Source: Escherichia phage Schulenburg
Strand: one strand, 5' to 3'
DNA: 44,748 nt
Sequence record: MK931438.1
The position numbers were made by a program, and so were the translations under genes. The notes beneath the pieces are model-generated. The model was not told the origin of the DNA and did no database searches. It saw only the letters and a list, made by a program, of their open reading frames with translations. How positions within the stretch are numbered: the stretch's first letter is position 1; every line of letters starts with the position of its first letter. Shown here piece after piece: positions 6,158-39,160 of this stretch.

Positions 6158-6184
6158 TTTATGCCTCCTGTTTAAGTTAACTGA

Positions 6185-6213
6185 ATAGTACCCTATTATA
6201 TTGGTGCGCGCAA
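6185..6213 (-). promoter_or_regulatory. type-B promoter/operator (TTGCGC-N17-TACTAT over palindrome AATAGGGTACTATT)
   Basis: Minus-strand TTGCGC, 17-nt spacer, TACTAT; inverted repeat AATAG-N4-CTATT overlaps the -10; about 30 nt upstream of moron start 6157. Confidence 0.45.
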
Positions 6214-11677: not shown

Positions 11678-12090
11678 TGGGCTACTTTGAAGACTTAACC
11701 AAAGCGTTCGACGTGCCGCTGGTAGCCTTCGGGGCCACCAACGGCATCAGGGTAGCGCTTGAGAACATCGACGCTCCGACGTCAACCGATACGCCATACC
11801 TTGCGAGTTACATGCTACTGGCGGATACCGAGCAGGCCGACTTATTTTTCACAGAGCAACGCGCCGGTGTTTATCAGGTGGACATTAACTACGCATCGGT
11901 GAAAGGTAGCGCGCCAATCAATAAAATGGCAGACTTACTTAACACGGCGTTTAAAGCAGGTAAGTCTTTTTCACGTAACGACATCTGCGCCGAAGTGCAA
12001 TCGGTTAGCCTGGGGCCGCTGATTGTAGAAAATGGATGGGCTAAAAGACCATTGTCGATTAACTTTATTGCATTCACCAAGAGGCTGTGA
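11674..12090 (+). CDS. tail terminator-like protein (putative)
   Basis: 138-aa ORF immediately upstream of major tail gene; positional. Confidence 0.45.
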   Translation: MMGYFEDLTKAFDVPLVAFGATNGIRVALENIDAPTSTDTPYLASYMLLADTEQADLFFTEQRAGVYQVDINYASVKGSAPINKMADLLNTAFKAGKSFSRNDICAEVQSVSLGPLIVENGWAKRPLSINFIAFTKRL

Positions 12091-13229
12091 ATATGGCTAC
12101 AACTCCTTTTAAGGGCGCGAATACCGCGCAATTCTATGTGGCGGAAACTACCCCGGGCGTGACACCGACTTCCCCGGTATGGTCGCCGTTGCGTAATACT
12201 GGCGGCGTTCCCGCGATTACCCGCGACACTTTGACCTCCAACGAACTGGACGGCAGCCGCGAAACTACGTCAATTCGCACTGGTAACAAACAGGTTAGCG
12301 GTGAATACGCCATCGAGCTTAGCTCTAAAAGTCAGGATGACTGGCTGGCAGGTGCTTTAGGCTCTACGTGGCAATCAGGTGTATCCTTAACTGACCTGTC
12401 AATTACCGTCGCACCGGCAGGCAAGACGTTCACCCGTGCTGATGGTAGCTTTATTACCGACGGCGTTGAAGTAGGCGACCTGATTGCGTTTACCGACTTA
12501 ACGGGAGATAACGCAAAACCGTTCATCGTCACTGCGGTAGAGGCACTGGTAGTGACCGGTGCGGGCATCCAGCACACTCTCACCACAGAGACCGCTACTA
12601 CTGCTGCTAAGACAGGCGACAAACTGGAAACCGGTAGCCAGTGTAAGACGTTCTCTATTCTCACATGGTACAAAGGCCAGTGCGGCGGGACTGACGCGTA
12701 CACGCTTACCAAAGGTGTAGAAGTTTCTGGTTTCACTGTTGAGCAGGCCGTTAACGCGATGGTAACGGGCAGCTTCCCGTTCATCGGGCGCAGCCAGGAG
12801 ATTCTCACCGAGCCGCCGTCTGGTTCTGATTTCTCCTCTGTTACGTTTGGTGATGAGCCGTTCTCCTCAGTTGACGTTTCTGTGTTCGATGGCTCTACGC
12901 CGTTGCGTTGTGATAGCCTTACCATCACCAACGACAACAGCGCGTCCGCGCAGTTCGAACTCGGCAACACTAACGTTGCGTTTGTGGAACGTAGCCGCGC
13001 GGCCAACACCTTCTCCATCTCCGGTAAGCTGTACGACATGGCGATGATTCAGAAGTTTATCAACGAACAGCAGGTAGAGATTAACTCTATTCTGGCGGGG
13101 GTAAACGGGGCTATGTCTTTCAGTCTGAAACGTGCAGAACTCACGGCGGTTACGCCAGAGATTGGTGGTCCTGAGTCAATCACTCAGAGCATAGAAGGAC
13201 AGTCAACAGGCAATCAATATCAATCTTAA
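12087..13229 (+). CDS. major tail protein (putative)
   Basis: 380-aa ORF upstream of chaperones and tape measure, followed by a strong terminator. Confidence 0.6.
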   Translation: MNMATTPFKGANTAQFYVAETTPGVTPTSPVWSPLRNTGGVPAITRDTLTSNELDGSRETTSIRTGNKQVSGEYAIELSSKSQDDWLAGALGSTWQSGVSLTDLSITVAPAGKTFTRADGSFITDGVEVGDLIAFTDLTGDNAKPFIVTAVEALVVTGAGIQHTLTTETATTAAKTGDKLETGSQCKTFSILTWYKGQCGGTDAYTLTKGVEVSGFTVEQAVNAMVTGSFPFIGRSQEILTEPPSGSDFSSVTFGDEPFSSVDVSVFDGSTPLRCDSLTITNDNSASAQFELGNTNVAFVERSRAANTFSISGKLYDMAMIQKFINEQQVEINSILAGVNGAMSFSLKRAELTAVTPEIGGPESITQSIEGQSTGNQYQS

Positions 13230-13273: not shown

Positions 13274-13310
13274 AAGGAAAAGGCCCCTTTCGGGGCCTTT
13301 TCCTTATTCC
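13274..13310. terminator. strong bidirectional intrinsic terminator
   Basis: Perfect 14-bp stem aaggaaaaggcccc / ggggccttttcctt with TTTC loop, A-rich 5' side and T-rich 3' side; between convergent genes. Confidence 0.7.
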
Positions 13311-13477
13311 TTCAATTGCATTGGGTAGAAGTTAACGAGTTCTCCTTTATCCCGAAGCCGTGAATATTCATCTAACGCATCTTCCCGGCTACTTACAGCA
13401 TAGATATCATTCCACTCGTCCCATTCTTTGTCGTATACGCGGATTATGTATATTGTTTTCATTACATTCTTACTCAT
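13304..13477 (-). CDS. hypothetical small protein (57 aa)
   Basis: Minus-strand ORF, ATG at 13477 (M15 of track ORF 13304-13519); last gene of the moron operon. Confidence 0.4.
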   Translation of the reverse strand: MSKNVMKTIYIIRVYDKEWDEWNDIYAVSSREDALDEYSRLRDKGELVNFYPMQLKE

Positions 13478-13700
13478 CAATATTACTCCTGTACTCTCGT
13501 AACTTCTCCAGACTTTCAATTGCTTCCGCTAAGTCGGTTCCGGTGTCTTTGTGCCCGCGAAGGCCCATACACAATAGCTTCTTCAATGCGTGCTGTAGCG
13601 CCGGGTCGCGAATGTCGAAGGCACGCAGCACATCATAAACGTCTACTGTCATAGTGCTGCCGTGAGTGTTTGTCATTGTGCGGTTGTATTTATTTGTCAC
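13470..13700 (-). CDS. hypothetical conserved small phage protein
   Basis: 76-aa ORF with GTG start preceded by AAGAGAG; motif DVYDVLRAFDI...HALKKLL..GLRGHK. Confidence 0.45.
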   Translation of the reverse strand: MTNKYNRTMTNTHGSTMTVDVYDVLRAFDIRDPALQHALKKLLCMGLRGHKDTGTDLAEAIESLEKLREYRSNIDE

Positions 13701-13890
13701 TGTTAACTCTCTTAAATCTGGCTATGCCTGACTCGTTAATGTTGCCTATTTCAAAGAAGCTGCGATATTTAGGCGAATACATTCTTACATCGCCATTCTC
13801 TAGGGTGACCCCTTCATATACAGCACCTACTTCGAATCCATTTTTCTCCGCGTACGGACTCACATCGGTGCATTCATACATGTCTTTCAT
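13690..13890 (-). CDS. hypothetical protein (66 aa)
   Basis: ATG overlaps stop of upstream gene (ATGA); same operon. Confidence 0.45.
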   Translation of the reverse strand: MKDMYECTDVSPYAEKNGFEVGAVYEGVTLENGDVRMYSPKYRSFFEIGNINESGIARFKRVNSDK

Positions 13891-15017
13891 CCAAGCATCT
13901 CCGGTGAAATAGTTAAACGTGCGACCTCGCCATATTCGGCGCTATAAGTAATTACATTTGCACTACGACCTGACATCCATCCGCCGCGAGAGGCGTAGGC
14001 GTCTTTAGCCGCCAGGGTGCGGTGTTGCTCAACAACCATGTTACGGCTTTCTACAATCTTCTGATGGTGCAGGTGGCCTACATGGGCGTAGCTGTAAACA
14101 CTCTCGCCGAACGCTTTGCGGAACTTGGCAATCATAACCGGTTCGATAGCGTCGAATCGTGCCTTATGCCCGTGGTGAAAGAACAGCGTCGTTTTGCCGT
14201 GTTGCACCATCTTGTAAACATCTGGCGACGTGTCGACGAACACCCGCGGCTCGTTGTCGTACAGCGTACTAAACATCTCAGCTAACCAAATCATTCCGCT
14301 TTCGTCGTGGTTTCCTTGCACGATAAGCAAGCGAACATTTTTATGCTTAACCAGCGCCATACCGACAACACGGCGTACCATACGAATCATGTAGCGGACC
14401 AGTTTCTGATAACGAGTGTCCGCATCAAGAACATGACCACTCGCTGGCGTAACCGCATCCAGACTATCGAAGTGCGCGAAGTCACCCAGCAGGTTAATAA
14501 CCCCAGTTCCTGCATCTGGTGCTTTCTGAAACGCCGCATCGAACCATCGGGAGAACAGGTCTTCTGCAATCTTCATGTCCCAGTCGTCGCCGCTCTCGTC
14601 GGCCCAGGCCAGCATACCGAGATGGAAATCAGATACAGTGTAAAGATTAAGTAGTTTATCGTCACGTTTGGCGCGAACGGCTTTAACAGGCGCAACCGGC
14701 GTAATCTCTGACTTCATGCCCTCGATTACAGCTTTCATCAACTCGACCTGACGTTCAGCGTCAGTGTCTGTCTTAACCCATTGCAACTTAGTGTTGCCGA
14801 ACTCGTCCACAAGCGACGACGTTCCTTTAATCTTGTAGCCGTCCGGGACAAGATGGCTAACGTCACGACCGTGACCTACGCCTTTCTTCGCCAGCTTCGC
14901 TTTACGGATACGAATAACTCGGTCTGAGATGCCGTATTTACGGGATATGTCGATAATCTTTGTTCCGGCGTTCAATTCTTCCTGTAACTGTTCGTCGGTT
15001 ATTTTAATCCGGGCCAT
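13887..15017 (-). CDS. HTH-domain + calcineurin-like metallophosphoesterase
   Basis: Metallophosphoesterase motifs in order: DFHLG, GDFAHFD, GNHDE, HHGH, GHLHH; N-terminal ~100 aa HTH-like; GAGGAAG SD. Confidence 0.7.
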   Translation of the reverse strand: MARIKITDEQLQEELNAGTKIIDISRKYGISDRVIRIRKAKLAKKGVGHGRDVSHLVPDGYKIKGTSSLVDEFGNTKLQWVKTDTDAERQVELMKAVIEGMKSEITPVAPVKAVRAKRDDKLLNLYTVSDFHLGMLAWADESGDDWDMKIAEDLFSRWFDAAFQKAPDAGTGVINLLGDFAHFDSLDAVTPASGHVLDADTRYQKLVRYMIRMVRRVVGMALVKHKNVRLLIVQGNHDESGMIWLAEMFSTLYDNEPRVFVDTSPDVYKMVQHGKTTLFFHHGHKARFDAIEPVMIAKFRKAFGESVYSYAHVGHLHHQKIVESRNMVVEQHRTLAAKDAYASRGGWMSGRSANVITYSAEYGEVARLTISPEMLG

Positions 15018-15056
15018 GCTTTACTTCCTCGTGTTTAGGATTTGTCCTATACTAGC

Positions 15057-15248
15057 TCACTTCTCTTTGACATTCGAGTTGCAAGCCCAGATTAAAATAA
15101 ATACCCACGGCAGCAGAACCCAGCCAAGAAACAGATTGGCCATGAATATCGCTAATTTCGCTTTATGACCCCGCATATGGGCCACTAAAAACGGGATAAA
15201 ATAAACTAAAACGATAATGATTAAGAAGAACATAGTAATACCTGTCAT
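15057..15248 (-). CDS. superinfection-immunity-like small membrane protein
   Basis: 63 aa, two predicted TM helices, motif YFIPFLVAHMRGHK...LGWVLLPWVFILIWA resembling Imm-type families; AGGAG SD. Confidence 0.5.
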   Translation of the reverse strand: MTGITMFFLIIIVLVYFIPFLVAHMRGHKAKLAIFMANLFLGWVLLPWVFILIWACNSNVKEK

Positions 15249-15289
15249 GGTGTAGCTCCTGTTTGAGTTAACATTGTTGGTGTAAGTGA

Positions 15290-15318
15290 ATAGTATCCTA
15301 TTATGTTGGGGTGCGCAA
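15290..15318 (-). promoter_or_regulatory. type-B promoter/operator (TTGCGC-N17-TACTAT over palindrome AATAGGATACTATT)
   Basis: Same architecture as sites near 6185, 38175 and 39101; about 40 nt upstream of the Imm-like gene. Confidence 0.45.
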
Positions 15319-15426
15319 GTAATGTGATAGAATAATTTTGCGCCTAGTGTCGCACACGAAAAGCGGGTGGTTCCCGTCTGGCGCATTTACCATTAACCTG
15401 TAACCTCTTAACCAAAGGATTAAAGA

Positions 15427-25917: not shown

Positions 25918-26409
25918 TCACGCGGTTTCTCCGTGGTTTTCATGAAATCCGTAAGCAGCTTCCGCAGCTTTACGCGCGGCGACAGCTTCGTCAAAATTAT
26001 CAAACCTTCCAATAGTTTTTGTCTTTCTAAATTTGGTTATTTGTACCAACCACTTGCACCGCTCTTTGTCAAATGACACCCCTACCGCCCCAGACCTATT
26101 ACGCCCGGTAGCCAGCCTGTTCATAGCGTTTTCCTGCTTAGTAACTACCCTTAAATTTGCGAGCCTGTTATCTGCGCGATTATGGTTCTGATGGTCTATT
26201 TCCATGCCGTCTGGTATAGGCCCATTGAACATTTCCCATATGACCCGGTGTGCGCGGTAGATAACCCCGTTGTAGCGAAACTGAATGTAGCCGAACTTGT
26301 TTAGTGTTCCGGCTACAGCACCTTTAGCAACATTTTTAGCAGGTTTTATAACCCATATTAGATTTCCGGTCTCCGGTTCATACCGTAGTACATTCTTCCA
26401 GATAAACAT
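25918..26409 (-). CDS. HNH endonuclease with AP2 domain
   Basis: HNH motif EIDHQNHNRADNRLANLRVVTKQEN; C-terminal AP2-like GVSFDKERCKWLVQI...GRFDNFDEAVAARKAAEAAYG. Confidence 0.8.
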   Translation of the reverse strand: MFIWKNVLRYEPETGNLIWVIKPAKNVAKGAVAGTLNKFGYIQFRYNGVIYRAHRVIWEMFNGPIPDGMEIDHQNHNRADNRLANLRVVTKQENAMNRLATGRNRSGAVGVSFDKERCKWLVQITKFRKTKTIGRFDNFDEAVAARKAAEAAYGFHENHGETA

Positions 26410-28048: not shown

Positions 28049-28348
28049 CTAACTATAATAGTTTGCTATTATGTCGTCAACCTCTTCTTTTGTTCCTACT
28101 ACAAAAACATTTGCGTCACGTTTACGAAGCCGTTTGTGCTCCCGTAACTGATGTTCCTCCGGTTCCGTGTTTTCATCCTTCTTCACCTCTACAAACCATA
28201 TAACCCCTCCCGGAAGGACAACCAACAGGTCAGGCGCTCCGTTTCTACCCTCATACACTATCTTACGAACGAGGCCGCCAAGGGCCTCGAATTGCTCTTT
28301 TGCGTATTTCTGAATCTTGCCTTCCGGAGTCATGAGCGCAAAACCCAT
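28049..28348 (-). CDS. VRR-NUC domain nuclease
   Basis: PD-(D/E)xK-type motif PDLLVV...WFVEVKKDE; 99 aa. Confidence 0.6.
   Translation of the reverse strand: MGFALMTPEGKIQKYAKEQFEALGGLVRKIVYEGRNGAPDLLVVLPGGVIWFVEVKKDENTEPEEHQLREHKRLRKRDANVFVVGTKEEVDDIIANYYS
28052..28080 (-). promoter_or_regulatory. type-A promoter with operator in spacer (TTGACG-17-TATAGT; ATAATAG-N4-CTATTAT)
   Basis: Minus-strand -35/-10 with 17-nt spacer containing a perfect 7-bp inverted repeat; overlaps the 3' end of the VRR-NUC gene. Confidence 0.55.
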
Positions 28349-31753: not shown

Positions 31754-31782
31754 ACTATAATAGCTAACTATTCAGGTGTCAA
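31754..31782 (-). promoter_or_regulatory. type-A promoter with operator in spacer (TTGACA-17-TATAGT; AATAG-N4-CTATT)
   Basis: Perfect -35, 17-nt spacer containing inverted repeat gAATAGTTAGCTATTat; immediately after the DUF2800-like stop. Confidence 0.55.
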
Positions 31783-34290: not shown

Positions 34291-34319
34291 ACTATAATAG
34301 CGAACTATTCACTTGTCAA
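34291..34319 (-). promoter_or_regulatory. type-A promoter with operator in spacer (TTGACA-17-TATAGT; AATAG-N4-CTATT)
   Basis: Minus-strand promoter divergent from the HTH regulator gene; inverted repeat gAATAGTTCGCTATTat in spacer. Confidence 0.55.
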
Positions 34320-34383: not shown

Positions 34384-34599
34384 ATGCAACCATCTGAACT
34401 AGGCATCCGTGTAGAACAACGCCGTAAAGAACTCGGCATCTCCCAGCGCCGTCTGGCTGTCCTGACTGGCGTTTCCCAGGGCGCGATTAACCAACTGGCA
34501 CTTGGGGTAACTCAGGACGTCCGCCCGGCGACGCTGTTTAAACTGGCGGAAGTGCTGGAGGTAGACGCCAAGTGGCTGGCGTTAGGTGAAGGGGCTTAA
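34384..34599 (+). CDS. HTH XRE-family transcriptional regulator (Cro/CI-like)
   Basis: 71 aa; HTH region ELGISQRRLAVLTGVSQGAINQLALG; AAGGAG SD; divergent from operator-containing promoters. Confidence 0.7.
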   Translation: MQPSELGIRVEQRRKELGISQRRLAVLTGVSQGAINQLALGVTQDVRPATLFKLAEVLEVDAKWLALGEGA

Positions 34600-38174: not shown

Positions 38175-38203
38175 CTTGCACACCCCAACATAATAGGATA
38201 CTA
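38175..38203 (+). promoter_or_regulatory. type-B promoter/operator (TTGCAC-N17-TACTAT over palindrome AATAGGATACTATT)
   Basis: About 35 nt upstream of first early gene. Confidence 0.45.
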
Positions 38204-38238
38204 TTCACTTATCGGAACGAGACAGAGGAGTGAGGGTT

Positions 38239-39100: not shown

Positions 39101-39129
39101 TTGCACGATGGGGAAGAATAGGATACTAT
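39101..39129 (+). promoter_or_regulatory. type-B promoter/operator (TTGCAC-N17-TACTAT over palindrome AATAGGATACTATT)
   Basis: About 35 nt upstream of ATG 39161. Confidence 0.45.
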
Positions 39130-39160
39130 TCATTTACACAAACGAGAGGAGAGGCAGAAT

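Follow-up and report, generated by a model that had tools for sequence, protein, structure and literature searches.

We analyzed a gene on the minus strand of a 44,748-nt stretch of DNA from Escherichia phage Schulenburg (MK931438.1), the whole of which we refer to as the window. The gene encodes a 376-amino-acid (aa) protein in which a helix-turn-helix (HTH) domain precedes a calcineurin-like metallophosphoesterase (MPE). The window is closely related to Escherichia phage Snoke (Kagunavirus, Guernseyvirinae), whose protein CPT_Snoke_024 is 100% identical to the one studied here and is already annotated as "phosphoesterase," with an HHpred note there pointing to an M. jannaschii calcineurin-like phosphoesterase. 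Over the 4 kb around the gene, identity to MK931441 is 99.5%. Already annotated and deposited, the gene is an ordinary member of a common family; its features in window coordinates are as follows.

13887–15017, minus strand: complete coding sequence with an ATG start (from the list of open reading frames, ORFs), 376 aa, HTH–hairpin–metallophosphoesterase of the PHROG 704 / T1 gp16 family
15024–15030, minus strand: Shine–Dalgarno sequence GAGGAAG, 6 nt 5' of the ATG, read directly from the letters; a ribosome-binding site is annotated here in Snoke
14883–15005, minus strand: three-helix HTH (aa ∼5–45) of LuxR/GerE/sigma-region-4 type, basic (isoelectric point 10.2)
14706–14837, minus strand: family-specific beta-hairpin (aa 61–85) and long helix (aa 87–104)
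13890–14663, minus strand: calcineurin-like metallophosphoesterase catalytic domain (aa ∼119–376)
14616–14630, minus strand: motif I, DFHLG, aa 130; D130 and H132 invariant in the 64-homologue alignment
14466–14486, minus strand: motif II, GDFAHFD, aa 178; G178 and D179 invariant in the same alignment
14301–14315, minus strand: motif III, GNHDE, aa 235; N236 and H237 invariant in the same alignment
14166–14177, minus strand: motif IV, HHGH, aa 281; H282 invariant in the same alignment
14064–14078, minus strand: motif V, GHLHH, aa 314; G314 and H317 invariant in the same alignment

Catalytic domain, N-terminal module, and family

A preliminary description of this DNA, made from the sequence without database searches, had placed an ORF with all five MPE motifs in order at this position, and this was borne out. 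The superfamily order D-x-H / G-D / G-N-H-[DE] / H / G-H-x-H, which makes up a two-metal center, is complete. Our conservation alignment comprised 64 diverse representatives, 32%–50% identical to the query; because the key motif residues are invariant across these divergent homologues, the metal center is under strong purifying selection. Three further histidines (H182, H284, and H315) are kept in at least 90% of the aligned sequences. A first homologue search had returned only proteins that were 97%–99% identical and of no use for alignment, and an exhaustive search of representative sequences was used instead.

An AlphaFold2 model built from this alignment had a mean confidence score (pLDDT) of 92.3, with values of 94–99 over residues 119–376, and adopts the alpha/beta sandwich of MPE enzymes. 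The Pfam models PF00149 and PF12850 scored below their curated gathering thresholds (18.5 bits versus 21.5 and 21.9 versus 27, respectively); because the motifs and the fold are present, this is no argument against superfamily membership and marks a divergent family that the Pfam models overlook. Searching PDB chains with the single protein sequence gave nothing meaningful, an NCBIfam search gave only noise, and the anti-phage defense and anti-defense models of PADLOC-DB had no match at E-values up to 1.

The preliminary description had suggested structure prediction and fold comparison. When we compared the model with known structures, the nearest folds were the nucleases DP1, SbcD, and Mre11, with cyclic nucleotide monophosphate and generic phosphodiesterases (Rv0805, GpdQ, YfcE, MJ0936) also among the close neighbors. 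The predicted fold points to the nuclease/phosphodiesterase branch of the superfamily and not to the Ser/Thr protein phosphatases (PPP family), although a modeled fold by itself does not separate DNA from small diester substrates.

The proposal that an HTH is fused to the MPE at its N terminus also held. The tri-helical domain is a genuine HTH that matches the LuxR/GerE and sigma-70 region 4 type by both sequence profile and fold; in the model, its helices span residues 8–16, 21–28, and 32–44 and are followed by a low-confidence linker (46–60). No structural match was found for the hairpin and long helix beyond the linker, in which G74 and W80 are invariant and K82 is kept in at least 90% of homologues. 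This hairpin module is better conserved than the HTH, which varies more in sequence than any other part of the protein. The HTH pattern is common to all 64 aligned members, and 117–165 residues precede motif I in every one of them. Family-wide and basic, the HTH is predicted to bind DNA. Unusually long family members, which we inspected for extra domains, only have the HTH or the hairpin module in duplicate, which is what one would expect of modules that bind nucleic acids.

The fusion had been called unusual for a phage Ser/Thr phosphatase, a view that a survey of the family overturned. The protein is a full-length match to PHROG 704 ("DNA repair exonuclease"; E = 3.8e-164, residues 5–375 on profile positions 3–389 of 390). 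A tblastn search found it in 2,040 phage records, 1,957 of which cover at least 80% of the query, from phages of Escherichia, Klebsiella, Salmonella, Vibrio, Flavobacterium, Rhodobacter, and Ruegeria; the matches include Jerseyvirus, Rtp, tonijn, Shfl1, Webervirus-type Klebsiella phages, and an N4-like roseophage. When 1.84 billion representatives, clustered at 50% identity, were searched exhaustively with HMMER, 4595 clusters matched at E-values up to 1e-3 and 1146 at E-values up to 1e-30, nearly all with members of 370–420 aa and matches reaching into the N-terminal region. The HTH–MPE fusion is the standard architecture and the hallmark of PHROG 704 (the T1 gp16 / Rtp61 family), kept in thousands of virulent siphoviruses and in some N4-like podoviruses, and the gene is near-core in several phage families. 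T1 gp16, Rtp rtp61 (annotated "highly similar to gp16 of phage T1"), and CPT_Snoke_024 have the same architecture, length, and invariant residues as our protein, with no difference. Databases name family members variously "phosphoesterase," "DNA repair exonuclease," "DNA polymerase II small subunit," or "winged helix-turn-helix domain-containing protein," all of which are names derived from fold similarity.

Relation to known metallophosphoesterases

Mre11 and SbcD (including T4 gp47 and T5 D13) share with the phage protein a nuclease-type MPE core and the GDxxH form of motif II. In Mre11 this motif reads GDLFH, with the histidine at D+3, and the phage protein has the Mre11 form (GDFxH, with H182 at D+3). 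Unlike Mre11 and SbcD, the phage protein has neither a capping domain nor a Rad50-binding C terminus; ∼59 residues follow motif V, all of which belong to the final core strands in the AlphaFold2 model. It has the N-terminal HTH and hairpin instead, and no Rad50/SbcC partner is encoded among the ORFs of the replication module or in the Snoke annotation from ∼8 kb to the end of the record. When the family profile was compared with PDB sequences, Thermotoga Mre11/SbcD appeared at E-values of 0.23–0.6, which are not significant. Another structural neighbor, the archaeal PolD small subunit DP1, is a 3'–5' proofreading exonuclease with only 11%–13% identity. The phage protein differs from it in having no OB-fold and no DP2 partner, and the phage polymerase is of family A and has an exonuclease region of its own.

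Two stand-alone phage MPEs offer functional precedents. T5 A1 is a predicted metallophosphatase that its authors liken to double-strand-break-repair nucleases and polymerase proofreading subunits, the same structural neighbors as those found here; expressed pre-early, it is reported to be both required and sufficient for degrading host DNA (10.64898/2026.04.02.716235). It differs from our protein in belonging to another, much longer family (556 aa, PHROG 1745), and T5 A1 itself matches PHROG 1745 only. The N-terminal profile of the PHROG 704 family recognizes an HTH (Pfam HTH_23, HTH_38, HTH_7) at the start of many non-T5 homologues of A1, among them the metagenomic proteins P0343, P0345–P0347, P0349, P0373, and P0385. 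Because these relatives also begin with an HTH, the combination of an HTH with a nuclease-like MPE is an architecture that recurs. T5 A1 itself has only a degenerate counterpart of the HTH, and the available part of the T5 preprint does not mention the HTH of its relatives. T5 A2 showed no similarity to the N-terminal module.

The second precedent comes from cluster-A mycobacteriophages, whose MPEs (A10ZJ24 Gp48, Bxb1 gp47, and L5 gp54; PHROG 221) are likewise stand-alone, early, and equipped with the five motifs, whereas they are shorter (∼255 aa), lack the HTH and hairpin module, and fall in another PHROG. Gp48 is an early, toxic MPE that degrades host DNA in vivo and linear, plasmid, and genomic DNA in vitro, and it is required for phage DNA replication in M. 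tuberculosis (PMC12287305).

Transcription and neighboring genes

The phosphoesterase gene lies in a minus-strand island (13304–15386) set between the tail tube gene (12087–13229, plus strand) and the tail assembly chaperone gene (15427, plus strand). Its other elements are listed below.

15289–15318, minus strand: putative promoter of the island, TTGCGC–17 nt–TACTAT, with the -10-like hexamer in a palindrome (AATAGGATACTATT)
15057–15248, minus strand: upstream co-oriented Imm-like superinfection-immunity gene, probably 63 aa (PHROG 1039, E = 5.8e-27)
13304–13890, minus strand: three small co-oriented downstream ORFs of 66, 76, and 71 aa, the first of which overlaps the MPE stop by 4 nt
6184–6197, 15289–15302, 28057–28070, 31759–31772, 34296–34309, 38192–38205, and 39117–39130: copies of the palindrome AATAG-N4-CTATT

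The palindrome AATAG-N4-CTATT, which the preliminary description had noted, occurs seven times in the window versus 0.03 expected, and all seven copies sit in promoter-like contexts with 17-nt spacing that fall into two classes. In the four class A copies (6184, 15289, 38192, and 39117), the context reads TTGC(G/A)C-N17-TACTAT, with the -10-like hexamer within the palindrome; in the three class B copies, which belong to strong promoters of the replication module (28057, 31759, and 34296), it reads TTGAC(A/G)-N17-TATAGT, with the palindrome in the spacer. The set looks like a phage-wide early/middle promoter–operator system. The element at 15289–15318 is conserved over the four class A sites, including those that precede the early small-gene clusters at 38192 and 39117; because it matches these early-cluster elements and the palindrome copy at 15289–15302 is directed into the minus-strand island, the phosphoesterase is probably transcribed with early-type genes and not with the surrounding tail genes. 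A generic promoter scan did not pick up this element. Snoke annotates a Cro / P22 C2-like regulator at window positions 34384–34599 (plus strand), ∼75 bp from the palindrome at 34296–34309 in a divergent promoter region; as a candidate to bind the palindromes, this regulator is the most conventional choice. The phage also encodes a second small HTH protein. We rejected another suggested operator for the gene, TAGGA-N4-TCCTA, of which a single site precedes the start codon; the site is not significant and is not conserved in phiEc3 or Jersey.

The Imm-like gene is deposited in Snoke as a "superinfection immunity protein" of 109 aa (window 15057–15386, minus strand), with the promoter-like element inside its 5' part. 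The true start is probably the ATG at 15248 (MTGITMFF..., 63 aa, with CAGGAG ahead), as annotated in phiEc3, and the 109-aa version seems to be over-extended. At the other end of the island, Snoke annotates a bidirectional terminator at window positions 13278–13301, between the convergent tail tube gene and the island end, which fits the island as an independent transcription unit. The GC content of the phosphoesterase gene (∼0.51) is backbone-like, and its small neighbors are AT-richer.

Directly 3' of the phosphoesterase is a slot that is a variable accessory hotspot (L005 3628–4116 and L003 5181–6696 in the relatives' loci). It holds a 66-aa orphan ORF here (13690–13890, minus strand), a HAD-PNKP phosphatase in phiEc3 (Pfam HAD_PNKP, E = 8.7e-20), and an HNH endonuclease with a Rha/ANT antirepressor-like protein in Jersey. 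The 76-aa ORF that follows (13470–13700, minus strand) is also kept in Jersey; the equivalent position in Jerseyvirus holds an ORF of the same size. It matches only the C-terminal ∼70 positions of far longer PHROG profiles (phrog_2452, 235 positions, E = 8.6e-37; phrog_17613, "ATPase") and is a stand-alone form of a domain that ends larger proteins elsewhere. A comparison of neighbors in Rtp, Jersey, phiEc3, Geezett, Vibrio K371a, and Dinoroseobacter DS-1410Ws-06 revealed no conserved partner gene. Beyond the island, the phage encodes a family-A polymerase, a primase-helicase, a second helicase, and a gp2.5-like single-stranded DNA-binding protein.

Away from this locus, the window matches Snoke at 100% identity up to position 25920 and then has no blastn similarity through at least 26700. 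The ORF at 25918–26409 (minus strand) encodes a 163-aa HNH endonuclease (phrog_99, E = 4e-65), and the genome thus differs from Snoke by a mosaic segment with a likely homing endonuclease and a divergent helicase 3' end.

Function of the phosphoesterase

The reading that we favor, with about even confidence, is that the protein is an early, HTH-tethered, metal-dependent DNA nuclease that works without a Rad50-like partner. Within the calcineurin-like superfamily, it would belong to the nuclease-like branch as a two-metal (Mn2+/Fe/Zn-type) phosphodiesterase, with DNA as its likeliest substrate. The HTH, and probably also the W80 hairpin module, would tether the catalytic domain to duplex DNA, which the tethered enzyme could then nick or resect alone, with no need of the Rad50/SbcC ATPase. 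The early-type promoter would drive the gene jointly with the Imm-like superinfection-exclusion gene. The likeliest role would be an early attack on the host chromosome, which would supply nucleotides and shut off host and defense gene expression; we propose this by analogy, because T5 A1 and A10ZJ24 Gp48, two independently evolved phage MPEs, have the same role. Processing of phage replication or recombination intermediates would come a close second. The invariant motifs, the Mre11-like motif II, the basic family-wide HTH, and the early-type promoter element speak for this reading. Both the native GC content and the near-core status of the gene fit DNA metabolism better than a recent moron.

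Several observations weigh against this reading. The precedents of T5 A1 and Gp48 are only analogies, because homology to the PHROG 704 family is not demonstrable. For T5 A1, single-sequence and profile–profile comparisons, including one of the catalytic domain only, gave just a local match: hhalign of the two families returned 18%–59% probability over the motif III region, where GNHD..SS.WLR aligned to SNHDLAL.RWL.D (a shared local "NHD-x4-WL" after motif III), and a weak 28% for the N-terminal HTH-like regions. For the cluster-A enzymes, the hhalign probability against Bxb1 gp47 was 8.7%, which leaves homology to it or to Gp48 unsupported, and Bxb1 gp47 matches PHROG 221 and not 704. The island promoter element agrees with the sigma-70 consensus at only ∼7/12 positions, and the match of the class A elements in general is modest. 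A further nuclease is not obviously needed, because the phage already encodes a separate PHROG 69 exonuclease, a VRR-NUC-like endonuclease, and an HNH endonuclease. Finally, our literature searches on the PHROG 704 / T1 gp16 family returned no biochemical or genetic data.

Among the alternatives, a small-molecule phosphodiesterase survives best, and we consider it unlikely. Such an anti-defense enzyme would destroy the cyclic (oligo)nucleotide signals of CBASS, Pycsar, Thoeris, or type III CRISPR, or would hydrolyze another nucleotide. It would be in keeping with the structural closeness of Rv0805, GpdQ, YfcE, and MJ0936; with the counter-oriented island, its superinfection-immunity gene, and its variable accessory slot; and with the position of the gene among small early genes in T1-like phages. 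On the other hand, a conserved HTH has no obvious use in a hydrolase of soluble signals, motif II is Mre11-like, and the top structural matches are nucleases. The gene is also near-core over thousands of genomes and native in composition, unlike typical anti-defense genes, which are patchy. Our literature search gave no precedent for a signal degrader of the MPE fold; in the papers retrieved on Lamassu, Metis, PUA-Cal-HAD, daunorubicin, and "conserved folds," MPEs appear in other contexts only.

We see a slim chance that the protein heals RNA or DNA ends, as a 2',3'-cyclic phosphodiesterase or 3'-phosphatase resembling the MPE domain of Pnkp, mending tRNAs or ends cut by host anticodon nucleases. 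MPE domains carry out this chemistry in bacterial Pnkp, and the gene directly downstream in phiEc3 encodes the HAD-type polynucleotide-kinase-phosphatase domain protein noted above. That neighbor is missing, however, from the window and from Jersey, T1/Rtp, Geezett, and the Vibrio and Dinoroseobacter phages; no kinase or ligase is encoded nearby; and an HTH suggests duplex DNA, not RNA ends. We rejected a PNKP-type end-healing module as a conserved partnership: the "polynucleotide kinase / acid phosphatase" neighbors of sister phages amount to the HAD-PNKP protein of phiEc3 only, in a slot that is variable.

A comparably small probability attaches to a primary role in transcription, in which an HTH dimer would sit on the promoter-embedded AATAG-N4-CTATT sites and the MPE would serve as a sensor, an oligomerization scaffold, or a moonlighting module. 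The excess of palindromes, all of them in promoter-like elements and one upstream of its own island, would suit a regulator; inverted repeats are typical targets of LuxR/GerE-type HTH dimers; and Bxb1 gp47, itself an MPE, reportedly moonlights as a recombination directionality factor, a non-catalytic role described in the Hatfull-laboratory literature. However, the invariant catalytic residues imply that catalysis is selected for; the HTH varies most of all parts of the protein; the family spans phages with unrelated promoters; and the phage has both the Cro/C2-like regulator beside one palindrome and the second small HTH protein. A hybrid of these ideas also seems improbable to us: a bifunctional early regulator–enzyme, whose LuxR-type HTH dimer on AATAG-N4-CTATT would link the regulation of early and replication promoters with a phosphodiesterase activity other than bulk DNA degradation, with site-directed nicking at phage promoters or origins and destruction of immune signals as candidates.

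Of the roles offered in the preliminary description, the nuclease option is the favored one, and the framing as a Ser/Thr phosphatase is not supported. It is very improbable that the phage protein acts on host proteins as a Ser/Thr (or Tyr) phosphatase of the lambda-PP / PPP type: it shares with the lambda enzyme only the superfamily fold and the intact five-motif metal center, whereas PPP enzymes have no HTH and rank low among its structural neighbors, the closest of which are not PPP enzymes, and the PPP signatures GDxHG, GDxVDRG, and GNHE are absent (the phage protein reads SDFHLG, GDFAHFD, and GNHDE, with no Arg after motif II).

Much of the appeal of the gene lies in the abundance of its family. 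If the protein is the early DNA nuclease that we favor, PHROG 704 would join T5 A1 and the cluster-A mycobacteriophage MPE as a third stand-alone phage MPE lineage of independent origin that attacks DNA early, and would be by far the most widespread of the three, extending over the Drexlerviridae, the Guernseyvirinae, Webervirus and Jedunavirus-type Klebsiella phages, many Vibrio phages, and some N4-like roseophages. A function would be assigned to a gene carried by many therapeutic-candidate phages, with a bearing on the risk of transduction and on the triggering of defenses that sense chromosome degradation (Metis, PUA-Cal-HAD). It could also put a name to the enzyme of host-DNA breakdown in T1-like phages.

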